Positions 9,183 to 23,204 of a DNA stretch of 32,000 nucleotides are shown one piece after another. The notes under the pieces were generated by a model. That model saw only the letters and a program-made list of their open reading frames with translations. It had not been told where the DNA came from and searched no databases. Origin of the DNA: Candidatus Heimdallarchaeota archaeon B3_Heim (lineage in GTDB: Archaea > Asgardarchaeota > Heimdallarchaeia > Hodarchaeales > Hodarchaeaceae); NCBI GenBank assembly GCA_003144275.1, contig NJBF01000030.1, positions 1 to 32,000 on the forward strand, read 5' to 3'. The number at the start of each line of letters is the position of its first letter. Within the stretch, counting starts at the first letter, position 1. The position numbers and the translations under genes are program-made.

Positions 9183-10892
9183 ATGTTCCTATCTACTGTG
9201 AAACTGAAAAATTTCCGTAGTATTACTGCTCTTAACTTAGAAAATCTTAAAAATTTAAACTGCTTTATTGGGAGTCATAATTCAGGAAAAACAAATATTC
9301 TAGATGGAATATCCGTTTTCTGGGATCCTCAAATTCGTACTCATAGTCAACAAAGGCAATTTCAAGCAGATACAACTCCTTTGAAGGAAGATTTCGATCG
9401 TAGCATATTATCATACCTGGATACTCATCATACACATGGAAAATTTAATTTCATTCTTGATCAACATCAGGGATTGCTTCCATGGAAAGAAAATGAGTCG
9501 TTAAAACAAAATTTTGTCCAAACTGCATTTAAATACAAGATCATAAATCCATTTGACGTTTACGATATATTTCTGGATGATTTGAGTTCAATTGTGGATT
9601 TAATGAAAATTAAATCCCTAGATTTTGATTTATCCTTAAATCCTAGTTTTTTAGAATTCCTCGAAGAGTCATTATTTCTTCGATTACGATCAGATGAGAT
9701 AATTAAATACGAATCAGTAAACGTACCTGTACCTATGATCCGAGATGCGCTCGGGACTACTTTTATTCGTCGATTTCATAATATGAATTTAGAATACGAA
9801 GTGCTACGAGCTAATTTGTTGAATGTTCTCCAAGGGAAGGACTACCAATCTATCACTTCCATAGAAAAATTCCTAAAGGATGTAATTGACCAAGATTTCG
9901 TATTCCGAGTTGGGGGAATCTCTCCTGATGGAAAACCTCAGATTGATGTTACTATTGAACGTAGTTTCTCTAGTCCATTATGGCGTATCTCAAGCGGGAC
10001 AATTAGATTGATTGCGCTTGCAAGTTTATTAACTACGGATCCTGTAAACGGACAGATAATTATCATTGATAATCCTGACCTTTTTTTACATCCGCGGGGA
10101 GAAAGAGAGTTAGCAAGAAAATTGGAATCATTTGCTAAAACTAGGCAATTCTTTTTTTCTACTCATTCCTCACGGTTATTAATTGGACAAGCTCATCTTG
10201 TTGAGCTAAGGAATGGATGGACCAACATCGAACGCATTCGGGGCCGTAAATCCATGAGAAAGGTTGTTAAACTTTTAGGGATTAGACCCTCGGACTCCCT
10301 AGGATCCGACATCGTTGTTTTTGTAGAAGGAAGAACGGACTCACGAGTATTTCGAGTATTCGAAGATAAAATATGTCATATCTATCCTGAATTATCAAAA
10401 GTACGTGTTTCGTATGTTGGGGTCGGAGGATGGACAAATATGAAATATGTCTTATCAATCGAATTGTTGAAAAGTAAATTTGTTCGAAGTAGAGCTCTCG
10501 CAATTACTGATGGGGACATTGTTAGCACCAAATCTTATGAAAAAGTTAAACAAAACTGGCAAGATGTTTTCCAAAAGGATGGTGATTTCTTTTCTTTGCA
10601 AGAGGAGTGTATCGAATCACTCTTTCTTAACAATCCAAGGGTTTTTGTTGGCATAATCAGACAAAAAGAAAGACCTAGTCCTTCTTTAGCCGAAATCAAT
10701 CAATTCATTCATCAAAAGCGTAATCATGGGTTATCAGATAAGACTATTACGCGTGAAATTGTAATAAAATACAATATAGGGAGAAAATATTCTTCCTCCA
10801 TTGCAGAGAGACTTGCAAACCAATTTAAAGAGGAGGAAATTCCAACCTATTTGGCTGAATTCTATAAATCCCATATTTTACAATACGAATAA
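9183..10892 (+). CDS. OLD-family ATP-dependent nuclease (ABC-type ATPase + TOPRIM domain)
   Basis: LKNFRSI start, Walker A GSHNSGKT, signature SSGT, Walker B variant IIIIDNPD, STHS H-loop; TOPRIM FVEGRTD and TDGD, plus EECIE. Confidence 0.85.
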   Translation: MFLSTVKLKNFRSITALNLENLKNLNCFIGSHNSGKTNILDGISVFWDPQIRTHSQQRQFQADTTPLKEDFDRSILSYLDTHHTHGKFNFILDQHQGLLPWKENESLKQNFVQTAFKYKIINPFDVYDIFLDDLSSIVDLMKIKSLDFDLSLNPSFLEFLEESLFLRLRSDEIIKYESVNVPVPMIRDALGTTFIRRFHNMNLEYEVLRANLLNVLQGKDYQSITSIEKFLKDVIDQDFVFRVGGISPDGKPQIDVTIERSFSSPLWRISSGTIRLIALASLLTTDPVNGQIIIIDNPDLFLHPRGERELARKLESFAKTRQFFFSTHSSRLLIGQAHLVELRNGWTNIERIRGRKSMRKVVKLLGIRPSDSLGSDIVVFVEGRTDSRVFRVFEDKICHIYPELSKVRVSYVGVGGWTNMKYVLSIELLKSKFVRSRALAITDGDIVSTKSYEKVKQNWQDVFQKDGDFFSLQEECIESLFLNNPRVFVGIIRQKERPSPSLAEINQFIHQKRNHGLSDKTITREIVIKYNIGRKYSSSIAERLANQFKEEEIPTYLAEFYKSHILQYE

Positions 10893-11103: not shown

Positions 11104-12357
11104 ATGCGCACCAAGAAACACCCTCAACCCCAGTTATCGATCCGCATGCAAATGAAACCACGGCCCATATTTACTGATTTGTGTACCTGTGCCAAAAATC
11201 TCTACAATCGCGCGACCTATGAGGTCCGGCAAGAATTCTTCCAGACAGGGAAATGGCTCCAGTATACGGCGCTCTATCATCGGCTCAAGCACGAACCCGT
11301 CTATCTCGAATTAAAAGCCATCTCGGATAGCTATTTACCCCAGCAAGTCTTACGCCAGATAGAACAGGTCTGGCGCGGCTTTTTTAACGCCTTGAAGGCC
11401 TGGAAAAAAGATTCCACTAAGTTTCAAAACCGGCCCCGAACCCCGCACTATAAACCCAAGAATGGGCGGCATATGCTGAGCTTTCCTCGGCCCCGCGTTC
11501 GTATCCGCAATAATCGAATATTATTTGCCCGGAATCTCATGATCCGCGGCTTTCCAGCCTTTCCAGTAGGCGCTCTTCCCTTGACAGCGGAAACATGTGT
11601 GGGGGCGCGGCTAGTCCCCTTTTATGACCGTTTTGTGGTCGAACTAATTTATGAAGTGCAGGTGCACCCTTTTCCTTCCTCTGATTTTCCCTCCCGTGCT
11701 ATGGGAATTGATCTCGGGCTTACCAACCTCGTAACTACGTCAGACGGCTTACTCGTCAAAGGCGGGATTGTGAAGACCATAAATCAGTGGTATAATAAGC
11801 AGCTGGCACACTATCGATCCAGGGCTTCTCTCTGCAACCACCCGCTGATTACTCAGCGCATTCTGCGCCTCCATCGGGTACGGACGAACAAACTCCGAGA
11901 TTTCTTCCATCAAACCACACGGCGCCTCATCACTTATTGTTTAACACACAATATTGAAACCTTAGTCATTGGGTATAATGCAGGATGGAAACATCAGTGC
12001 AACCTCGGAAAACGCACAAACCAATCGTTTGTCCAACTTCCCTTCTTGCAGTTGGTTCAGATGCTTGAATATAAGGCGAAACTTGTTGGTATGACAGTAG
12101 TTCGCGTGAAAGAGGCGTACACCTCCCAGCAATGTAGTAAATGTAGTCACACGGAAAAAAAGAATCGAAAATCCCGTGGTTCCTTTTCCTGTCTACGGTG
12201 TGGGGTTCATCTGAATGCTGATTATAATGCAGCATGTAATATTCTTCAGCGTTGTCTCAATCCCTCCCAAGTAGTCCCCACGGAAAGCATACATTCTCAT
12301 GTTGCTAACCTGCCGGATAGCGGATGTGTGATTCATCCTGTCCAGAACTCTTTTTAA
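11104..12357 (+). CDS. tnpB: TnpB (IS200/IS605-type) with rearranged RuvC-II site
   Basis: KNLYNRATY N-terminus, RuvC-I MGIDLG, VIGYN.GWK in place of the canonical Glu motif, VKEAYTS, zinc finger CSKC/CLRC and RuvC-III NADYNAA. Confidence 0.93.
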   Translation: MRTKKHPQPQLSIRMQMKPRPIFTDLCTCAKNLYNRATYEVRQEFFQTGKWLQYTALYHRLKHEPVYLELKAISDSYLPQQVLRQIEQVWRGFFNALKAWKKDSTKFQNRPRTPHYKPKNGRHMLSFPRPRVRIRNNRILFARNLMIRGFPAFPVGALPLTAETCVGARLVPFYDRFVVELIYEVQVHPFPSSDFPSRAMGIDLGLTNLVTTSDGLLVKGGIVKTINQWYNKQLAHYRSRASLCNHPLITQRILRLHRVRTNKLRDFFHQTTRRLITYCLTHNIETLVIGYNAGWKHQCNLGKRTNQSFVQLPFLQLVQMLEYKAKLVGMTVVRVKEAYTSQQCSKCSHTEKKNRKSRGSFSCLRCGVHLNADYNAACNILQRCLNPSQVVPTESIHSHVANLPDSGCVIHPVQNSF

Positions 12358-15847: not shown

Positions 15848-15920
15848 ACTCAAAAATTGCCGTTAAATGTTTCCTTTAATAGAATTCCCAGCATTCATTG
15901 TATATGAGATGACTTATTTA

Positions 15921-16958
15921 ATGCCAAAAGATATTACACGTAGTTTACAACTGACAGGAGCTAGAACTTATCTAGTTAGTCTCCCAAGAGAGTGGATTGA
16001 GCGAAATGGGCTGGAAGCTAAGGATGAAATAGGTATCCGTATTGAAAATGAAACGTACTTACTTTTATATCCCCGAAACCCCCGCTTAACTCCTAGAAAG
16101 ACCACAACAATTCCAGAATCCGAAAGTATTGAGTTAGAGCTACTCAGTCGATATATCACGGGCTTTGATACAATGGTAGTATATCCCAGCGAAGGTAAAA
16201 AAATTAAAGATCCAGATAAGATACGAGAGGAAATACGACATCAGATTGGTTTGGAAATAATTCGTGAATCCCCAAATCAATTAGAAATTCAATTTATTGC
16301 TACATCAGTACTAGATTTGCAAACTTTGGTAAGAAAAATCTACGCTTTATCTTTCAGTATGTTAGATGATGCGATTAGCGCAATTTTTTCTGGAGATGGT
16401 GAGAAACGGGAAAAAATCGTCAAAAGATACTCTGAAATAGACCGAGTTTATTATTTCATTGTTCGATTGCTACAAAAATCGTTTGAGGATCCACTAGAAG
16501 AAATTAATGAAAGTTTGTATCCGTTTGAGGGATTAAATTACCAGATAGTCGCTTATCAAGGAGAAGTACTAGGACGATCCTGCAAAGAGCTAGCAGAAAG
16601 GATTGGAAAATTTCAAAAATCGTTTTTAACTACAGAAACTGAATCTATGGTCAGGGAAATTGCTGAAAAACTCATTGAATTACTTGATACTGCAATTGAG
16701 GCGTTTTTGAATAAAGACACAGAAAAAGCGGCCATTACAGTCAAGGAAGTAAAGACTAAAAAGTACCAGGTACAACCATTGTTAGCGATTATCTCTGAAG
16801 AAGCGGCAGATGAGCCTACATGGTTTCTTGCACGATTACTATCGAGTTTACTTGAACAAGCAGATCAAGTTTGCTATCTCACAGATATCGTAACACGAGG
16901 ATTCAATGCTTTACATGAATATGATGCAAAACAATATTTGGAATCTGAACTCACTTGA
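15921..16958 (+). CDS. Archaeal AbrB-PhoU fusion regulator (phosphate-uptake-regulator family)
   Basis: RSLQLTGARTYLVSLPREW is an AbrB/MazE-type N-terminus; ELLSRYITGFD and IDRVYYFIVR lie in PhoU-like helical repeats. Start placed at the ATG at 15921 (the ORF extends to 15867). Confidence 0.85.
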   Translation: MPKDITRSLQLTGARTYLVSLPREWIERNGLEAKDEIGIRIENETYLLLYPRNPRLTPRKTTTIPESESIELELLSRYITGFDTMVVYPSEGKKIKDPDKIREEIRHQIGLEIIRESPNQLEIQFIATSVLDLQTLVRKIYALSFSMLDDAISAIFSGDGEKREKIVKRYSEIDRVYYFIVRLLQKSFEDPLEEINESLYPFEGLNYQIVAYQGEVLGRSCKELAERIGKFQKSFLTTETESMVREIAEKLIELLDTAIEAFLNKDTEKAAITVKEVKTKKYQVQPLLAIISEEAADEPTWFLARLLSSLLEQADQVCYLTDIVTRGFNALHEYDAKQYLESELT

Positions 16959-17150
16959 TTTCGCTATTTTTCGATGCACACAAAAGAAATATTGAGGTAA
17001 AATTCTTTCCTGTAGGGATGGACAAAACATTCTCCAGATTGGATTTTCAGAGAGTGAACAAAGAAAACAGTTTTTGTGTTACCATAATTACTAAACCATT
17101 TCTATGTGGTTTGAAAGATAATTCTTTGACAATCGGGTAAGGTAAGGTTT

Positions 17151-18386
17151 TTGGAAAAACCAGCTATAAATGGGGGAAAACGGACTAGAGAGAATGTTTT
17201 GCCACTTTTTGACGTGGATATCGGTGATGAAGAAGCCAAAAATGTTCTTGCGGTCTTAAAATCACGTGATTTGGTGCAAACACACGGAACATGGGCTAAT
17301 CAATTCGGAAAACTTGTTAAAGACTATTTAGGAAGTGGTAATATTGTTATGGCTAATAATGGAACATCGACGATGCATTTAGCCCTAATTGCGCTTGGAG
17401 TCGGGCCAGGTGACGAAGTAATATGTTCACCGCTTGGATGGATATCCAGTGGAACCCCAAGTTTATACCAGAACGCTGTACCAATATATGCAGATGTAGA
17501 TCCTGTTTATGGTTTTATTGATGTCGAGGATGTACGCAGTAAAATTACTCCCAGAACCAAAGCCATATGCGTAGTTCATCCATGGGGATTACCTGCAGAT
17601 TTAGATCCACTTCTCGAGTTGGGAGAAGAAAAAGGAATTCCAATTGTAGAAGACGCTGCTGAAGCTTTTGGTGCTACCTATAAAGGAAAAAAGGTTGGAT
17701 TATTCGGAAGTTTTGGTAGTTTTTCAACAGTCTGGAATAAGATTATTACAACAGGTGAGGGAGGCTTTCTGGTTACTGATGACGAAAACCTCGCTCAAGT
17801 TGCAGGACACTATGCAAGTTTTGCCAAAGTCCCTGGAAAGGGAGATTATTTCGATGGACTTGGCTATAATTATCGTATGACAGAAATGATGGGCGCTCTG
17901 GGAGTTGCACAAATTAAAAGAGTAGAAGAGGTTATTAAAAAGCGTCGTGCCAACGCAGATTACCTTCGGAAACAATTAAGCTCTTTAAATATTCAAGGAT
18001 TAAATTTACCGGAGGAACCGGAATGGGGACGGGGTGTTTGGTGGAAATTTACCGTTTTATTGGATTTAGATAAGTTTACAGATTCAAAAGATGAAATTCT
18101 AAAAGCAATTCAGGCTGAAGGAATAGGCGTTGCAGCACCTGTTAATCCTGATAATCTTCAACCGTTCTATTCTACTAAGCAAGTGTATGGCAATACTAGC
18201 TGTCCTTGGGATTGCCATTACTATAACGGTCCGAAAAATATTGATTATTCTCTAATGTGCCCAGAAGCAAAAATTTACTCGGATCGAGCACTTTGGCTAA
18301 CAGGGTGTGGACCAAGATTAACAAATCCCGATCTAGATTCTATTGTGGTTGCTGTGGATAAGATTTTGAATTGGTATAAAAAGTAA
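17151..18386 (+). CDS. DegT/DnrJ/EryC1/StrS family PLP-dependent sugar aminotransferase
   Basis: NNGTSTMHLAL, GPGDEVI, EDAAEAFG (PLP Asp), NKIITTGEGG (catalytic Lys) and GYNYRM. Confidence 0.93.
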   Translation: MEKPAINGGKRTRENVLPLFDVDIGDEEAKNVLAVLKSRDLVQTHGTWANQFGKLVKDYLGSGNIVMANNGTSTMHLALIALGVGPGDEVICSPLGWISSGTPSLYQNAVPIYADVDPVYGFIDVEDVRSKITPRTKAICVVHPWGLPADLDPLLELGEEKGIPIVEDAAEAFGATYKGKKVGLFGSFGSFSTVWNKIITTGEGGFLVTDDENLAQVAGHYASFAKVPGKGDYFDGLGYNYRMTEMMGALGVAQIKRVEEVIKKRRANADYLRKQLSSLNIQGLNLPEEPEWGRGVWWKFTVLLDLDKFTDSKDEILKAIQAEGIGVAAPVNPDNLQPFYSTKQVYGNTSCPWDCHYYNGPKNIDYSLMCPEAKIYSDRALWLTGCGPRLTNPDLDSIVVAVDKILNWYKK

Positions 18387-18398
18387 AAAAAAGTTAGG

Positions 18399-19073
18399 AT
18401 GTATATGAAATTCACAAAAGAGAAATTTGCAAAATATATAGATCACTCGGCTTTAAAACCTCACTTTGGTGAAAATGATATTATTAGAATGGCAAATGAA
18501 GCATTAGTATGGAAATTTGCTGCTCTTTCGGTAAATCCTGTTTACACTGACATTGCAGCAAGAGAATTACGCGGTGAGGATATCCATGTCAATCCCTGTA
18601 TAGCTTTTCCATTTGGTGCGATTACTCCAGAGTTAAAAGCTTTAATAACGGAGAATTGTATGAAGAAAGGAGCCACAGAAATTGATATGGTCGCAAATAT
18701 AGGTGCCATTCGAGAGGAAAAGTGGGAATTTGTGAAAAAAGACATAGAGGGAGTGGTGAAAGCTGCGAATGATAGGGAAGTAAAGGTAATTATTGAAACT
18801 GCCTATTTAACTGACGACTTAAAAGAAAAAGCGGCTGTTATCGTAGCTGATGCAGGTGCTGCATTTGTTAAAACGAGCACTGGATATGCTCCTTCAGGAG
18901 CAAGTATTCATGATATTAAACTGTTATATACAGCTGTTGGCAAAAGAATTAAAGTAAAAGCGGCGGGGGGTATCCGTCATTATGAAGATGCTGTTGTATT
19001 AATTGAGAATGGTGCAAGTAGAATAGCTTCAAGCTCCTCTATACAAATCATGAAAGAAGGAGGGTTCACATAA
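18399..19073 (+). CDS. deoC: Deoxyribose-phosphate aldolase (DeoC family)
   Basis: IDHSALKP, EIDMV, VKVIIET, FVKTSTG (Schiff-base Lys) and VKAAGGIR. Confidence 0.92.
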   Translation: MYMKFTKEKFAKYIDHSALKPHFGENDIIRMANEALVWKFAALSVNPVYTDIAARELRGEDIHVNPCIAFPFGAITPELKALITENCMKKGATEIDMVANIGAIREEKWEFVKKDIEGVVKAANDREVKVIIETAYLTDDLKEKAAVIVADAGAAFVKTSTGYAPSGASIHDIKLLYTAVGKRIKVKAAGGIRHYEDAVVLIENGASRIASSSSIQIMKEGGFT

Positions 19074-19079
19074 AATTCC

Positions 19080-19086
19080 TTTTTTT
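19080..19086 (+). terminator. Candidate archaeal oligo-T terminator after deoC
   Basis: T7 run 6 nt after the stop codon. Confidence 0.4.
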
Positions 19087-19281
19087 ATAAGTAACCAACA
19101 TACAATAAGCAGCAATAATCTTATAAAAGAAAAAAGGCCTATTTTTATTACTTCTTTTAAAATCGAATTTTTTGTCTGTATTCTAATATTTCGCTGTAAT
19201 ACAACGTAAACACTTTTCTCGATTATTTTTATACTAAATGGCAATCGGTACAGCCTTTTTTCCATGTTTTAAACAGATATG

Positions 19282-19289
19282 TTTATATA
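19282..19289 (+). promoter_or_regulatory. Candidate TATA box TTTATATA for PTS IIC
   Basis: Consensus archaeal TATA box about 85 nt upstream of the start; an identical box precedes IIB. Confidence 0.45.
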
Positions 19290-19372
19290 TGAGTGATTTA
19301 CTAAACCGAGACTTGTGATTTGAGAGAAAACAATCTCAAATTTCATTCAAAAAACATATACGGTGAATAATA

Positions 19373-20965
19373 TTGGCAATAATGCAAAATGATCTTGTTG
19401 ATAGTATAAATGAGCTGTTACAAGGTCCAATTGAGTGGTTGTTTAATGCCGGACCTATCATTATGTTTCCCATAATTATTATCATACTGGGGCTTATTTT
19501 TAGACAAAGCCTCTCAAAATCCGTCAGAAGTGGTATCCTTATTGGAATCGGCTTCATCGGTATCTTCACTTTCGCATTTGATGTGTTTATGGAAACAGTT
19601 GGTCCAGCAGCTTTCGCTTTTGTCGAAAATACTGGAGTTAAACTGACAGCAATCGATGTTGGATGGGGTCTCGCAAGCAGTATTACGTGGGCTATGCCGA
19701 CAGCTTTCGGTGTTATCGTTGTATGTTTCATAGTAAACCTAATAATGTTAGCATTAGGAAATAGAACAGTTACTGTCATAGGTAAGACATTTAAAATCGG
19801 CACTATGACATTAGATGTAGATCTATGGAACTATTGGGCGTTTGGATTTACTGCCGCTCTCACATACGTAGTAACTCAAAACTCTCTAGGTGAATTTCCA
19901 GCATACGTGTTAGCAATGCTATTTGCAGCTATACACGCAATCATGGCTTTCAAGATATCAGACTGGATTGCACCTTGTATGGCTGATCCTGAAAACTTTA
20001 ATTTACCAGGAATCTCGTTACCTCACGGAAATGCGATGATGGCACCATACGCGTTTGGTATTGACAAGGTCTTGCGAAAGATCCCCTTCATCGGGTCTAT
20101 CAAGGCCGATCCCGAATCAGTTCAAGAAAAACTTGGTCTAATCGGTGAACCAATCTTCATTGGTTTAGTTATTGGAGCATTTATTGGTACTCTCGGGTAC
20201 TATCCATTGATTGATACTGATTTCTGGGGACCAGAAGGTTTTCTGTTATTGGTTGCAAATGTAGCCATGACATCAGCAGCTGTTATGTATTTAATACCCA
20301 AAATGGTCGCTGTTCTTATGGAAGGGCTCATACCTCTATCCGAAGGCATTCGGGATTACATTACACAAAAATATCCTGGACGTGAGTTCATCATTGGAAT
20401 GGATATGGCTATTATCATAGGATATCCAGCTGTAATTGCTGTAGCTCTTATAATGATTCCAATTTCAATTTTCATGGCGGTTATACTTAGTAACCTCCCA
20501 ACACCATTTGGAATGATTGTATTACCTTATGCAGACCTAGCAGGTATGGTTTTCTATTCAGTATTGGCCATTATGCCCTCCAAGGGTAATCTTGTTCGCG
20601 GTGTTATATCTGGTACAATTCAACTTGTCGTCATATTGTACACTGCTGGAATAATGGCACCTCTGATGACTGTTGCTGGAACCACTGCAGGCTTCGATTT
20701 AACAGGTTTCTACTTTGGTGAAACAGGCCTGACAATCACATCTCTAGATGCTGGAAGTAATGCGGTCCATTGGATGCTTATTCTTTTGATTTTCCCATTC
20801 TTCCAAATGGCAGAATGGACTGCTATCTTTACAACTGGTGGTTATTGGATTTGGTTTGCTATAGATGTCGCATGGTGGGTTGGTTACATCCTATTATGGT
20901 ACTATCTAAGAAACGAACCAACGAAGATCTCAGAAGAGAAACTCCAGGATACAGCTGTTGCGTAA
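19373..20965 (+). CDS. PTS galactitol-family (Gat/Sgc) EIIC permease
   Basis: IGIGFIGI, IDVGW, VDLWNYW, ISLPHG, GEPIFIGL, PKMV.VLMEGL.PLSEG and LPYADLA are GatC-family motifs; SD-like GGTGA before the TTG. Confidence 0.9.
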   Translation: MAIMQNDLVDSINELLQGPIEWLFNAGPIIMFPIIIIILGLIFRQSLSKSVRSGILIGIGFIGIFTFAFDVFMETVGPAAFAFVENTGVKLTAIDVGWGLASSITWAMPTAFGVIVVCFIVNLIMLALGNRTVTVIGKTFKIGTMTLDVDLWNYWAFGFTAALTYVVTQNSLGEFPAYVLAMLFAAIHAIMAFKISDWIAPCMADPENFNLPGISLPHGNAMMAPYAFGIDKVLRKIPFIGSIKADPESVQEKLGLIGEPIFIGLVIGAFIGTLGYYPLIDTDFWGPEGFLLLVANVAMTSAAVMYLIPKMVAVLMEGLIPLSEGIRDYITQKYPGREFIIGMDMAIIIGYPAVIAVALIMIPISIFMAVILSNLPTPFGMIVLPYADLAGMVFYSVLAIMPSKGNLVRGVISGTIQLVVILYTAGIMAPLMTVAGTTAGFDLTGFYFGETGLTITSLDAGSNAVHWMLILLIFPFFQMAEWTAIFTTGGYWIWFAIDVAWWVGYILLWYYLRNEPTKISEEKLQDTAVA

Positions 20966-20994
20966 TAATATCAGCTACGTAACTTCTTCCCCCC

Positions 20995-21004
20995 TTTTTT
21001 TTTT
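20995..21004 (+). terminator. Candidate oligo-T terminator between PTS IIC and IIB
   Basis: C-run followed by T10, about 30 nt after the stop. Confidence 0.45.
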
Positions 21005-21023
21005 CCATTCGATTTTTAAGCGA

Positions 21024-21031
21024 TTTATATA
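21024..21031 (+). promoter_or_regulatory. Candidate TATA box TTTATATA for PTS IIB
   Basis: Consensus TATA box about 65 nt upstream of the ATG; SD GTGAGG at the start. Confidence 0.45.
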
Positions 21032-21095
21032 ATTTTAAACAACGTAAGAGATTAAAATGTAATCAAATTCTAAAGTTAATAAGTGAGGATTCTTA

Positions 21096-21416
21096 ATGGC
21101 AAAACTTGTATTAGTAGCATGTGGGACAGCAATCGCAACTGCGACTGTTGTAGCCTCAAAAGTGAAAGAGATAATGAAAGCTAATAAAATTCCAGGAAAG
21201 GTAGTTCAGTGCAAAGCTTTTGAAGTTAAATCAAAAGTTAACTACCAAAAATATGATTTAATTGTTTCTACAACAATGGTTTCTGGTGAAACAACAATCG
21301 AGGGAAGACGCGTTGTCGGTAATGATAAAGTAACGATTTTGGGTGGTATTCCCTTTCTTTCGGGTCGTGGTATGGAAGAACTCAAAGAAGAAATTGTTAA
21401 ATCTTTAAAAGAATAA
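21096..21416 (+). CDS. PTS galactitol-family EIIB component
   Basis: LVACGTAIATATVV phosphorylation loop with catalytic Cys; DLIVSTT and GIPFLSGRG. Confidence 0.9.
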   Translation: MAKLVLVACGTAIATATVVASKVKEIMKANKIPGKVVQCKAFEVKSKVNYQKYDLIVSTTMVSGETTIEGRRVVGNDKVTILGGIPFLSGRGMEELKEEIVKSLKE

Positions 21417-21516
21417 ATCTCACATTACGATTTACGACCTCTAATATCCATTTCAAATGTAGATATTGAGCGCGATCTATTCTGATTTCAGGCCAAAAAC
21501 ACCTGAACTTAATGTG

Positions 21517-21708
21517 TTATCTTTGTTGTATTAATACCGTTCTGAAAGACTTACCCAAATAGGACTGGTAAAAATAATTAGGAAAAATTATTACAAACAG
21601 TCTTTGGAGCTGTTCTTCCTGATTCAACGACGCGAGCCTGCTGAAATGCAGGTCTTGCCACCTCTCCACAGGCATTTAAGGTCTCCGCGGAACTCTCGGC
21701 GACCGGAA
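21517..21708 (-). ncRNA. Predicted omega/reRNA of tnpB copy 2 (scaffold to 21537, guide about 21536-21517); 5' boundary approximate
   Basis: Collinear with 835-1006, with the same CCTGC/GCAGG hairpin and GAACGG end. Confidence 0.6.
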
Positions 21709-22858
21709 AGAGTAGGAACTGATAGATAGAATAATAATTGGCAACATTAAGTGCAGCATTCTGATCACGATCTAATACCAACCCGCATAACGGGCAATGA
21801 AAAATTCGATCAGCTAACGTCAGATCACGACGGTAATAAAGGCAATTCGAGCATAATTTCGAGGAAGGAAACCAGCGATCGATCTCAATCACCATGGAAC
21901 CATATAAAGGCGCCTTATATTTTAATAACCTCTGAAACATACCATGTGAAAGATCGGCCCAATATTTACTCAGCTTTTTATTTTGCATTAATCCTTTGAC
22001 ATATAAATCCTCGGTAACTATCACACTGTGGTTTTTAGCGAGATAGGTGGAGGTTTGATGCAAAAAATTATGCCGTTGGTTAGTAATTCGACGATAAAAT
22101 CGCGCTAAACGGAGGGCTGATTTCTGTTTATTATTTGAGCCTTTCTCTTTCCGTGAATGAGCTTTCGCTAAGCGACACTGTTTCCGAGCTTGACGGAGGA
22201 GAAATTTAGGTCGTACGATTGGTATTCCAGAAGATAAGGCTGCAAAGACAGATAATCCTTTATCCAACGCAACGAGTGGTCCACCGTTGGGTTCACGATC
22301 AATTTGCACCTCTTTCACGGTAAGAGCAACATACCAGCGATCCGCAGTCCGAGAGACCGTGGCACTCAGTATCCGTGTCGATACAGGTAAATTTGATATT
22401 TCTTTTAGACGTAGTTTCCCCAAACGAGGCAATTGCACCTGTTTTACCTCTGGAAAAAGGCGAACCACTCCTGTCAATCGAAAGCTGTCCTTGCACTTTC
22501 CTTTTTTCTTGAACTTGGGCAATCCGACATAGCGGGTGGTTTGGTTCTTTTTTCTTTGTTGATGATTGGTGAAGAAATTCTGATAGCCACGATCTAAGTC
22601 GCGGAGTGCCTCTTGCGGGACACATTTCGAGACCTCATACATCCAGGGAAAATCAGTGTGTTTCAAGTTGTTTAGTTCTTTATGTTGTTTCATAGCATCG
22701 GTATAACGAGCTTCACCTGTTTGCGTTCGATAACGGTTTTTTCGATTGGCCAATCCCCAGTTCCAGGTAAATCGCGATATACCTGCACATTTGGTCAGAA
22801 GCGTCCGTTCTTTGTTATTTACACATAATTCATACTTGTATCCTCGCGTCCTGAGCAT
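21578..22858 (-). CDS. tnpB: RNA-guided endonuclease TnpB (IS607-associated type), full length
   Basis: HTH-like N-terminus (RFTWNWGL), FPWMYEVSKCVPQEALRDL, intact D/E/D RuvC triad, zinc finger and VAESSAETLNACG tail. Confidence 0.95.
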   Translation of the reverse strand: MLRTRGYKYELCVNNKERTLLTKCAGISRFTWNWGLANRKNRYRTQTGEARYTDAMKQHKELNNLKHTDFPWMYEVSKCVPQEALRDLDRGYQNFFTNHQQRKKNQTTRYVGLPKFKKKGKCKDSFRLTGVVRLFPEVKQVQLPRLGKLRLKEISNLPVSTRILSATVSRTADRWYVALTVKEVQIDREPNGGPLVALDKGLSVFAALSSGIPIVRPKFLLRQARKQCRLAKAHSRKEKGSNNKQKSALRLARFYRRITNQRHNFLHQTSTYLAKNHSVIVTEDLYVKGLMQNKKLSKYWADLSHGMFQRLLKYKAPLYGSMVIEIDRWFPSSKLCSNCLYYRRDLTLADRIFHCPLCGLVLDRDQNAALNVANYYSIYQFLLFPVAESSAETLNACGEVARPAFQQARVVESGRTAPKTVCNNFS

Positions 22859-22925
22859 CCCTGACCATCCTAACTAGTACCCTCGATCATAACATAGCAA
22901 TACGGATTGATTACTCGTTTTTCTG

Positions 22926-22933
22926 CTTATAAA
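22926..22933 (-). promoter_or_regulatory. Candidate TATA box (TTTATAAG) for tnpB copy 2
   Basis: About 70 nt upstream of the ATG, inside the inferred left end. Confidence 0.35.
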
Positions 22934-23204
22934 CCTACTAGGCCACGTGATCTAAATCAAAATTGCTAATTTTCCGTTATTTTGATATTAAAAGACTAAC
23001 TAGTTCATCGTTGGAACTATCATCTCATGAGATTCGCTTATTCCTCTATCAATTCAATATTTTAGTCTCTACTCGCTCCTCCTTTGTTGCCTTGCTTTTT
23101 GTTTCCCTTTTCCCCTTATAACTTACTTTTCCTATTTGTCTATAAATGTCTATATTTGGCTAATATTCAATAGATAGTTAACAACCCCTTTTTTTCTTTA
23201 AGGA

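Follow-up and report, generated by a model that had tools for sequence, protein, structure and literature searches.

Five genes of a Heimdallarchaeota contig are the left arm of a 13-gene, probably laterally acquired galactitol-family phosphotransferase island

Background

The closest described systems are the bacterial galactitol-family PTS operons, such as gatYZABCD of E. coli, and the pentitol/arabitol Gat-type PTS of Listeria and Enterococcus. The D-glucosaminate (dga) system of Salmonella combines a PTS with a PLP enzyme that deaminates a phosphorylated amino sugar acid and with an aldolase; its PTS is of the Man family, and deamination is carried out by an ammonia-lyase resembling SelA and not by a DegT transaminase. 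The sgc operon of E. coli encodes Gat-like EIIC, EIIB and EIIA together with SgcQ, a member of the BtpA family, and is not known to contain a DegT gene. PTS-mediated sugar uptake has been regarded as almost exclusively bacterial (PMC8100219). The fructose PTS of Haloferax is an experimentally demonstrated archaeal acquisition of a bacterial-type, PEP-dependent system (Pickl et al. 2012; PMC12525153, PMC8100219). No description of a PTS in Asgard archaea was found in the literature searched.

The five-gene cluster and its neighborhood

The window analysed here is a stretch of 32,000 nucleotides of contig NJBF01000030.1 from Candidatus Heimdallarchaeota archaeon B3_Heim (G000), in which the following features were recognized:

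15921-16958, + strand: regulator with an AbrB/MazE-type domain and a PhoU domain (PF04014, PF01895; reading frame open from 15867)
17151-18386, + strand: DegT/DnrJ/EryC1-family PLP aminotransferase (PF01041, 283.7 bits)
18399-19073, + strand: DeoC, deoxyribose-phosphate aldolase, DERA (TIGR00126, 228 bits against a cut-off of 117.3)
19373-20965, + strand: PTS EIIC of the galactitol (Gat) family, 530 aa (PF03611, 198.6 bits)
21096-21416, + strand: PTS EIIB of the Gat/Lac type, phospho-acceptor Cys9 (PF02302, 37 bits)
21417-21535, no strand: unique 119-bp spacer, the island breakpoint, without homology to intact islands beyond the EIIB stop codon
21536-23194, - strand: IS200/IS605-type non-autonomous element with TnpB at 21578-22858 (NF040570, 252 bits against a cut-off of 100)

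An earlier note, made from the sequence of this stretch, had described five co-oriented genes with intact catalytic residues, and this was confirmed: all of them lie on the + strand, match their profiles and keep the key residues. Its remark that genes for NDP-sugar metabolism are absent nearby also held, with no nucleotidyltransferase, dehydratase or glycosyltransferase gene adjoining the cluster, which is flanked by ProDH, DUF599 and LysE genes upstream and by TnpB and then GatD/GatE downstream; the presence of GatD/GatE agrees with an archaeal host. Relatives of the AbrB/PhoU regulator align from its residue 19, and therefore 15921, rather than 15867, is probably its true start. This regulator was the most conserved gene of the locus (94-96% identical in G003 and in the related locus L133; dN/dS 0.013) and adjoined DegT in every species whose contig extends far enough.

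The same gene order was found again in six other species of this Hodarchaeum-like genus, with 60-94% protein identity, indicating that the arrangement is not due to chance. The earlier note had advised a search for conserved neighborhoods in other genomes: the combination of IIC, DegT and DeoC was seen in this genus only and was not found outside it among 80 loci of DegT relatives and 78 loci of IIC relatives. In these loci, drawn from GTDB genomes, PTS genes were near none of the 80 DegT relatives, and this DegT was near none of the 78 IIC relatives.

The complete island in sister species

A tblastn map revealed the same 13-gene order in five species (G003, G005, G010, G016 and G021), with DeoC absent in G016. 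The first part of the island runs from the AbrB/PhoU regulator through DegT, DeoC where present, EIIC, EIIB, a class II aldolase and a Zn-ADH to a membrane protein; EI, HPr, EIIA and YjbQ follow on the opposite strand, and a BtpA/SgcQ protein comes last. In all five species, EI, HPr and EIIA are located 3-5 kb past EIIB on the same contig, and each of these genomes contains the full set of EI, HPr and a cognate EIIA. The five genes of the window are the left arm of this 13-gene island and are not self-contained.

With a probability of about 0.6, the locus represents the left arm of a catabolic island with a bacterial-type galactitol-family PTS, which was acquired laterally and which, within a single Hodarchaeales genus, a minority of the species possess. 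The bacterial origin is suggested by the EIIC family, which is overwhelmingly bacterial, and by the long stem (1.78 substitutions/site) of the Hodarchaeum EIIC clade, placed among bacterial sequences in the tree; EIIC identity was 73-95% within Hodarchaeum and fell to at most 42% in bacteria. The search for a donor by phylogeny, proposed in the earlier note, led to a position among bacterial sequences but singled out no donor lineage. The rarity of PTS in archaea, which that note had mentioned, was borne out for this phylum, the EI N-terminal domain being above cut-off in 17 of 400 Asgard genomes.

Truncation of the island in B3_Heim

No match to HPr (PF00381), EIIA_2 (PF00359) or EI (PF05524) was found in the 94%-complete assembly of B3_Heim, where the set of components seen in the sister species is consequently not complete and the sole PEP-utilizer is an 816-aa open frame. 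Similarly, in this MAG of 103 contigs, whose breaks fall at IS copies, tblastn across 3.95 Mb recovered no ortholog of the right-arm proteins (class II aldolase, Zn-ADH, the 351-aa protein, EI, HPr, EIIA, YjbQ and BtpA), and only paralogs of at most 33% identity were present. The amino-sugar pathway that had been proposed for the five genes fits the island, but it is incomplete here, as EI, HPr and EIIA, required for the uptake and phosphorylation step, were not found in the genome.

The alignment of L133 to the window ends at 21415, at the EIIB stop codon, and this end of homology to intact islands places the breakpoint there; L133, with an EIIC 89% identical, retains the class II aldolase and the Zn-ADH after EIIB. 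The interval 18701-21561, junction included, is common at 95% to the window and to L132, an independent ENA contig that represents a strain from another metagenome. The TnpB element, a member of the IS200/IS605 group by its profile score, sits between the EIIB spacer and the GatD stop codon (23205), and its copies have common ends at 21536 and about 23194. Full-length copies of 85-90% identity were found in contigs C96, C38 and C82, besides a 79% copy in C48 and a partial 87% copy in C63. Because these other copies are no more than 90% identical, the contig carrying the truncated island is probably not chimeric.

A tentative but plausible explanation is that the right arm persists in this organism, having been moved by IS-associated rearrangement and lost at assembly or binning of the MAG, so that the PTS pathway would be complete but split. 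It is consistent with a genome 94% complete, in which many contigs are terminated by an IS copy or by a 128-bp repeat, the latter recurring with 98.5-100% identity at four other contigs' ends, with the selection still acting on EIIB, and with the presence of copies of the same IS on both sides of the ancestral rubrerythrin/gatD junction, which indicates a multi-step rearrangement. It is opposed by the empty tblastn search of the 3.95 Mb and by the expectation that assembly and binning would normally recover a unique piece of 8-25 kb; moreover, the 16-kb stretch that lies to the right of the island in G003 is missing from B3_Heim as well, as a larger deletion or replacement predicts.

The permease, the aminotransferase and the predicted pathway

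The PF03611 match of EIIC (198.6 against a cut-off of 24.2) covers residues 24-439, the whole permease domain, and assigns the protein to this family; it retains 48 of the 48 invariant columns of a 21-sequence alignment and, with 530 aa, exceeds its bacterial homologs in length. EIIB belongs to PF02302 (37 bits against a cut-off of 23.6) and carries the N-terminal Cys9 in a VACG motif. The galactitol-specific EIIC model (TIGR00827) scored 322 against a cut-off of 542, and GatB (NF007643) scored 57 bits against 95 for EIIB; therefore, the substrate should not be named galactitol. The other modules have bacterial precedents: of the 78 Gat-IIC loci, 47 include a Zn-ADH, 13 a class II aldolase and 7 a DeoC gene. 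A Gat-type PTS with a Zn-ADH and an aldolase is also the layout of a plain polyol pathway.

The aminotransferase is a member of the DegT family by its PF01041 match and by the presence of the Schiff-base Lys, and not of the His that replaces it in the ColD/E1 dehydratases. Lys197 and Asp168 were invariant in the subfamily alignment, and Lys197 aligned with the Lys of the perosamine synthetase FS....K motif. The subfamily is further marked by a C-terminal insert with a CPxxC...CP motif (Cys351, Cys355 and Cys370), which matched no solved sequence when used alone as query. The characterized NDP-sugar aminotransferase equivalogs (LegC, PseC, ArnB, RfbH, WecE and DesI) were all far below their NCBIfam cut-offs, the best score being LegC-like (221 against 420). 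Among the full-length matches to the subfamily profile are 2-deoxy-scyllo-inosose aminotransferases, enzymes with non-nucleotide substrates; perosamine synthetase, however, outscores the others over the core (339 bits), so that sequence does not assign the DegT substrate.

In the tree, a GntR-linked group from Chloroflexota was the sister of the window DegT (support 96). Its members are surrounded by divergently oriented GntR/UTRA regulators and by SDR, class II aldolase, sugar isomerase, AP_endonuc_2 and PIG-L deacetylase genes, and one of them adjoins a Gat-type PTS (IIB, IIC-GAT, Zn-ADH and EIIA). These catabolic-type clusters make it reasonable to predict that DegT would be a catabolic transaminase with a non-nucleotide substrate. 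The context of the Cys-motif subfamily as a whole is mixed, one member adjoining a cytidylyltransferase and another a GFO/IDH/MocA oxidoreductase.

For the whole island, a mechanism can be proposed that predicts what kind of substrate is taken up, which way the transamination runs and in what sequence the enzymes act. PEP would phosphorylate EI, from which phosphate would pass to HPr, EIIA and EIIB-Cys9, and EIIC would import a polyol-like compound with its phosphorylation, most likely an amino-polyol or an amino(deoxy) sugar. DegT would then transfer the amino group to a 2-oxo acid and leave a sugar phosphate in keto or aldo form, the Zn-ADH would adjust the oxidation state, and the class II aldolase, together with DERA where present, would cleave the product into a triose phosphate and a small aldehyde.

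It is unlikely that the island encodes instead an ordinary polyol pathway of the gat/arabitol type, fed by a pentitol, hexitol or deoxy-polyol and involving no amino compound, with DegT as a passenger or in a side role. The EIIA-IIB-IIC set with Zn-ADH is indeed the standard Gat-type layout (47/78 loci), class II aldolase and DeoC occur at Gat-type loci (13 and 7, respectively) devoid of DegT, and an Oceanobacillus locus reads IIC-ZnADH-DeoC-ZnADH-DeoR; nevertheless, DegT heads the island beside the regulator in every island-bearing species and is under strong purifying selection (dN/dS 0.06-0.07), and its sister clade is associated with sugar-processing genes that are controlled by GntR/UTRA regulators, in one case together with a Gat-type PTS.

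DeoC and selection on the left arm

DeoC, which starts 12 bp past the DegT stop codon, is a predicted deoxyribose-phosphate aldolase by both its TIGR00126 score and its motifs: it is about 48-50% identical to solved DERAs, matches both Lys residues (the Schiff-base Lys and the second one) and the Asp motifs, and aligns its VKTSTG, VKA(A/S)GG and E(I/V)DMV motifs with 8qps and 5dbu. The islands of two species (G016 and G001) have no DeoC and, consequently, its aldol cleavage is not an obligatory last step. DeoC is dispensable to the island, as seen from these two species and from a second deoC in the genome, for which the earlier note had advised looking. That note's placement of DeoC at the end of the pathway was not upheld, the conserved partners being the class II aldolase and the Zn-ADH.

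It is improbable that the five genes on their own make up a working pathway in which the PTS takes up and phosphorylates an amino or deoxy sugar, to be reverse-transaminated and cleaved by DERA. Their ORFs are intact with catalytic residues, DegT and DeoC are 12 bp apart, and in the lineage with the truncated island purifying selection acts on EIIC and EIIB, but the genome yielded no EI, HPr or EIIA, the cluster runs on into eight more genes in every other species, and the islands of two species do without DeoC.

Between the window and L132 (dS about 0.1), dN/dS was 0.24 for EIIC and 0.16 for EIIB, and EIIC accumulated 28 non-synonymous and 34 synonymous changes, against about 108 non-synonymous changes expected under neutrality. 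Purifying selection on both genes since the shared junction indicates that the left arm is still in use. Moreover, the selection on EIIB, whose sole known role needs EIIA~P, argues that the relay persists somewhere; either it is encoded on DNA that escaped assembly or binning, or the permease functions in its absence. A stronger combination, in which the Cys-motif DegT would act on a sugar phosphate in an undescribed PTS-fed amino-polyol or amino-deoxy sugar route and EIIC and EIIB would have been kept working, in the absence of EI, HPr and EIIA, while the DNA diverged by about 5%, is doubtful; if true, an Asgard archaeon would have a PTS permease that does without the PEP relay or draws on another phosphodonor. 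A functionless left arm, decaying since the loss of the relay, is very improbable: the right arm and relay were not found, IS elements have built up at the junction, among them a nested DDE element in L132, and the dN/dS measured against L132 is roughly double the long-term one, but all ORFs are intact in two lineages about 5% apart in DNA, and the EIIC changes are far from neutral expectation.

Significance

A complete Gat-family PTS of bacterial type is present in some Hodarchaeales, a lineage discussed among the close relatives of eukaryotes, and is connected there with an archaeal regulator and an unusual set of enzymes. This is a further concrete example of the movement of bacterial machinery for carbohydrate uptake into the genomes of Asgard archaea. 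The uncharacterized DegT subfamily with the CPxxC...CP motif spans many phyla, and its nearest members stand in catabolic, not glycan-biosynthetic, contexts, making it a candidate for a new step in amino-sugar or amino-polyol degradation. For the window itself, caution is needed, as the five genes alone cannot be read as a working PTS pathway.

Comparison with known systems

Like the bacterial Gat operons, the island encodes separate Gat-type EIIA, EIIB and EIIC, a Zn-dependent polyol-phosphate dehydrogenase beside the permease and an aldolase of the triose-phosphate-yielding kind. It differs in its EIIC, at most 42% identical and below the galactitol subfamily cut-off, in its aldolase, of the FucA/AraD/OtnC type and not GatY, in the addition of DegT, DERA, YjbQ, BtpA and the archaeal AbrB/PhoU regulator, and in its Asgard host. 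The uncharacterized EIIA-EIIB-EIIC(Gat)-ZnADH-DeoC-ZnADH-DeoR clusters of Bacillales and Selenomonadales, such as that of Oceanobacillus chungangensis (L163; DeoC TIGR00126, 243 bits), likewise link a Gat-type PTS to DeoC and Zn-ADHs, but have no DegT, a DeoC only about 41% identical and bacterial regulators (MtlR-like, SorC/DeoR).

The GntR/UTRA-DegT clusters of Chloroflexota (Anaerolineae; L054, L055 and L057, and metagenome contigs of P0018 and P0030), also uncharacterized, share the C-terminal Cys motif of the window DegT and have class II aldolase, dehydrogenase and sugar isomerase neighbors, to which the P0018 contig adds IIB, IIC-GAT, Zn-ADH, EIIA and YjbQ. However, their DegT is 38-40% identical, and they contain PIG-L deacetylases, which the Hodarchaeal island does not; their companion proteins share only 25-34% identity with the Hodarchaeal counterparts, which gives no obvious sign of joint inheritance of the modules. 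The transaminases with non-nucleotide substrates, BtrR/2-deoxy-scyllo-inosose aminotransferases (2c7t, 5w70/5w71), NtdA (4k2b) and KdnA (5k8b) have the same fold family as the window DegT. The BtrR-type enzymes and 8gyh match its subfamily profile over the full length, C-terminal region included, although 8gyh, a solved relative that spans the insert, does not have the three Cys.

The Haloferax fructose PTS is similarly a bacterial-type PTS that an archaeon has gained and that is linked to the catabolism of sugar phosphates; it belongs to the Fru and not the Gat family, comes from a different phylum and is not known to involve an aminotransferase. Finally, the BtpA/SgcQ-family protein at the right end of the island resembles SgcQ of the E. 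coli sgc operon.

The gene cluster in the window

The genes of the window were called by means of ORF listing and profile searches, which revealed a cluster of five co-oriented genes.

Genes of the cluster in the window
15921-16958, plus strand: regulator with AbrB/MazE and PhoU domains; the frame is open from 15867, and 15921 is the likely start because relatives align from residue 19
17151-18386, plus strand: DegT-family aminotransferase (PF01041, 283.7 bits)
18399-19073, plus strand: DeoC (TIGR00126, 228 bits against a cut-off of 117)
19373-20965, plus strand: Gat-family PTS EIIC (PF03611, 198.6 bits)
21096-21416, plus strand: EIIB (PF02302, 37 bits)

Lys197 and Asp168 were preserved in DegT, DeoC shared about 48-50% identity with solved DERAs and matched them in both Lys residues and in the Asp motifs, EIIB presented Cys9, and EIIC retained all columns that are invariant across an alignment of 21 sequences. 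The earlier note had described five co-oriented genes with intact catalytic residues and no NDP-sugar-type genes beside them, and both points were confirmed, the window annotation revealing no nucleotidyltransferase, dehydratase or glycosyltransferase gene near the cluster. The cluster is preceded by genes for a proline dehydrogenase, a DUF599 protein and a LysE-type exporter, and followed by TnpB on the minus strand and then gatD/gatE. Elsewhere in the window, an OLD-family protein (AAA_15/AAA_21 ATPase plus TOPRIM; 9183-10892), a type frequent in defence loci, adjoins another TnpB (11104-12357).

In four species a conserved (A/C)TACTAAA element precedes the DegT start by about 60 bp (window about 17089-17095; 60-62 bp in the sister species G003 and G021 and in L133, the relative with an 89% identical EIIC), and two further copies precede EIIC in the window. 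The TACTAAA core occurred 8 times in the island intergenic regions against 2.2 expected; half of these were the orthologous positions upstream of DegT, and the core was rejected as evidence of a shared operator or regulon. A promoter element, perhaps TATA-like, is the probable explanation.

A 13-gene island in sister species

Of the other species of the genus, 6 out of 21 have EIIC, which was not found in any of 19 genomes searched from other genera of the class. The gene order of the window cluster recurred in all six species, and a genus-wide search revealed HPr, EIIA and the EI N-terminal domain together in five of them and only there, on the same contig as EIIB and 3-5 kb beyond it. The complete island, defined from the annotation of G003 and a second sister species, G005, and from a tblastn map, comprises 13 genes in a conserved arrangement.

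Gene order of the complete island
Left part, plus strand: regulator, DegT, DeoC, EIIC, EIIB
After EIIB: class II aldolase (PF00596; best NCBIfam matches OtnC, AraD and FucA, all below cut-offs)
After the class II aldolase: Zn-ADH (Tdh/IolM/GatD-like, below cut-offs)
After the Zn-ADH: 351-aa membrane protein without a family
Next, minus strand: EI (TIGR01417, 581 bits), HPr, EIIA (Gat type), YjbQ
Island end, after YjbQ, plus strand: BtpA/SgcQ

The 351-aa protein (L018:12804-13859 in G003; orthologs in L016, L017, L020 and L021) is predicted to have two membrane helices, and its C-terminal domain is well conserved; it matched no Pfam family, and its atlas matches scored at most 0.87, with PLD-like leads that were weak only.

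Similarity along the island was discordant. The window shared 94% identity with G003 in the regulator, 86% in DegT and 88% in DeoC, 79% in EIIC and 62% in EIIB, and 89% and 91% with L133 in EIIC and EIIB, which suggests inter-species recombination inside the island (15867-21416).

DeoC was absent between DegT and EIIC in two of the six species (G016 and G001). Moreover, the check for another deoC in the B3_Heim genome revealed one on contig C10 (12364-13812; L010:715-2163), coding for a 482-aa protein (TIGR00126, 290 bits; 44% identical to the island DeoC) in which an N-terminal part of about 255 aa without an assigned family is fused to the DERA domain, with acetate kinase directly after it. 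With this second copy present, and with DeoC lost from two of the islands, the island DeoC is best seen as an accessory step and not the core of the pathway.

Truncation and rearrangement in B3_Heim

The B3_Heim assembly (3.95 Mb, 103 contigs, 94% complete), in which the window is contig C61, yielded no HPr, EIIA_2 or EI, its sole PEP-utilizer being an 816-aa open frame, and tblastn of all right-arm proteins of G003 against the whole assembly recovered only paralogs at no more than 33% identity. A self-contained PTS pathway of five genes, the earlier note taken literally, is thus not supported; only the left arm of the 13-gene island remains at this locus. Homology to L133 stops at the EIIB stop codon, where L133 continues into the class II aldolase and Zn-ADH, and in the window EIIB is followed by a unique 119-bp spacer, a 1.66-kb IS200/605-type element (21536-23194, with TnpB) and, about 10 bp further, the gatD stop codon. 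The same junction of EIIB, spacer and IS was found in an independent ENA contig (L132) of a strain with 95% DNA identity, with an extra DDE element nested in it. A chimeric assembly or a collapse across the repeat is unlikely because the other genomic copies of this IS are at most 90% identical, differing by at least 10%.

The genes that follow gatD in G003 lie on contig C63 in B3_Heim, next to a further, incomplete copy of this IS; beyond that copy come genes which G003 carries on a third contig. For the 16-kb stretch right of the G003 island, B3_Heim offered no counterpart until the start of contig C48, where the sequence opens with a different high-identity repeat. The history of the locus is therefore a multi-step, IS-associated rearrangement, reconstructed in part. 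Many contigs of this assembly end in IS copies (ends listed: C48, C69, C80, C100 and C101; C1, C24, C25, C59, C62 and C68), and a 128-bp terminal repeat, 98.5-100% identical, is common to five contigs. This IS-rich genome limits the absence claims that rest on the MAG.

Selection on the left arm and the relay missing from the assembly

Between the window and L132, two lineages with a common junction, dN/dS was 0.24 for EIIC and 0.16 for EIIB at a dS of about 0.1, and EIIC had accumulated about 28 non-synonymous changes against about 108 predicted under neutrality, with no frameshifts or stop codons. Selection has therefore continued after the truncation; against intact relatives, dN/dS was 0.07-0.12. 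Two options follow: the relay lies on DNA missing from the MAG, or the left arm has a relay-independent role. That the organism still has a relay elsewhere is a real but minority prospect.

This strain is partly represented in four cold-seep runs (X1-X4; sampled-word share of up to 0.52), whose contigs were aligned to the G003 island at 80% likeness. The matches covered both arms, including EI, HPr, EIIA and YjbQ, on contigs of 150-1500 bp at 2-5x and 82-85%, too short and shallow for strain assignment; judged by these matches, the samples contain such island genes. Contigs from X1 and X4 join the YjbQ-BtpA spacer to the interior of the regulator gene (L018 positions 17225 and 5601) with 33 other letters between, a match of about 80% likeness only, which may represent another organism's arrangement or a repeat. 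A set of 5.8 billion proteins was searched for a translocated right arm with the class II aldolase taken from the nearest intact relative; the best cluster was 86% identical, on an 881-bp contig without context.

A cysteine-motif subfamily of DegT

The island DegT was at least 67% identical within Hodarchaeales and at most 40% elsewhere. Its subfamily carries a C-terminal insert with the motif CPxxC...(about 14 residues)...CP at residues 351-370 (window 18201-18260), invariant in the subfamily alignment, whose three cysteines are candidate ligands of Zn or an Fe-S cluster. The motif was found in 20 of the 80 loci fetched as nearest relatives, distributed among Chloroflexota, Thermoproteota, Nitrospirota, Planctomycetota, Acidobacteriota, Pseudomonadota and other phyla. 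The solved relative 8gyh spans the insert and lacks the cysteines, and the insert alone gave no match among solved sequences.

In a maximum-likelihood tree, the Hodarchaeum DegT clade grouped with a Chloroflexota/Anaerolineae set (support 96*). The Leptolinea member of this set (L054) is surrounded by a divergent GntR/UTRA regulator, an SDR, a class II aldolase, a xylose-isomerase-like TIM barrel and two PIG-L de-N-acetylases, a core shared by the P0030 metagenome contig, which adds a glyoxalase and Ldh_2. Similarly, the P0018 contig carries GntR, IIB, IIC-GAT, Zn-ADH, EIIA, SDR and YjbQ beside its DegT relative, and the P0015 contig GntR, an M20 peptidase, an IF-2B-type isomerase and a Bmp-type ABC transporter. 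No NDP-sugar genes were found in the contexts examined for this set, whose layouts are catabolic and regulator-controlled and support a deaminating role of DegT, with an amino sugar or amino-polyol, free or phosphorylated, as substrate. The window DegT also scored far below the cut-offs of all NDP-sugar transaminase equivalog models, and its full-length profile matches included 2-deoxy-scyllo-inosose aminotransferases. The idea of a catabolic DegT thus gained support. The subfamily is not uniform, since more distant members with the motif adjoin other genes, for example a cytidylyltransferase in one case and a GFO/IDH/MocA oxidoreductase in another.

Origin, proposed pathway and comparison with known systems

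The nearest EIICs outside the genus were bacterial and 32-42% identical, and a bacterial origin of the gene is inferred. The phylogeny proposed for naming the donor lineage, run for EIIC, placed the Hodarchaeum clade on a stem of 1.78 substitutions per site with no supported bacterial sister. Among Asgard archaea, the EI N-terminal domain scored above cut-off in 17 of 400 genomes, with matches at E <= 0.001 in 8 of 85 genera. The other EI loci examined (G034, G047, G286, G290, G291 and G005:C329) were 32-38% identical, had no Gat-IIC or DegT nearby and were rejected as kin of the island, their unrelated context indicating independent systems. Several other Asgard genera carry their own EI/HPr loci, and G005 holds a second EI/HPr pair (C329:18800-20760, L217), 35-43% identical to that of its island and with no Gat-IIC nearby.

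Within 10 kb of 78 EIIC loci of GTDB species, EIIA was found in 73, EIIB in 73, Zn-ADH in 47, class II aldolase in 13, DeoC in 7 and the window-type DegT in none; the sole locus with any DegT, from Rubrobacter, encodes an unrelated PseC-like 367-aa enzyme 5.6 kb away. A plain polyol pathway in which DegT would be peripheral is the main functional alternative and appears unlikely. In the most likely account (probability about 0.6), the island is a Gat-family PTS system that was acquired laterally and serves a polyol-like amino compound, which would first be phosphorylated by the PTS and then transaminated by DegT; oxidation or reduction by the Zn-ADH would come next, followed by aldol cleavage by the class II aldolase, plus DERA where present. 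The uptake, transamination and aldol-cleavage pathway as proposed earlier is partly supported: the evidence favours a catabolic DegT, but not the self-sufficiency of five genes. Among the loci searched, the neighbourhood of IIC, DegT and deoC was seen within the genus only.

The PTS is described as almost exclusively bacterial, with characterised archaeal cases in haloarchaea only (PMC8100219, PMC12525153). The literature searched contained no description of an Asgard PTS, including Hodarchaeales, of the Cys-motif DegT subfamily or of DegT-linked PTS catabolism. EIIC with Zn-ADH and an aldolase has bacterial precedent, as does EIIC with DeoC, exemplified by the Oceanobacillus cluster EIIA-IIB-IIC-ZnADH-DeoC-ZnADH-DeoR; the unusual addition is DegT, and the full combination was seen in this genus only.
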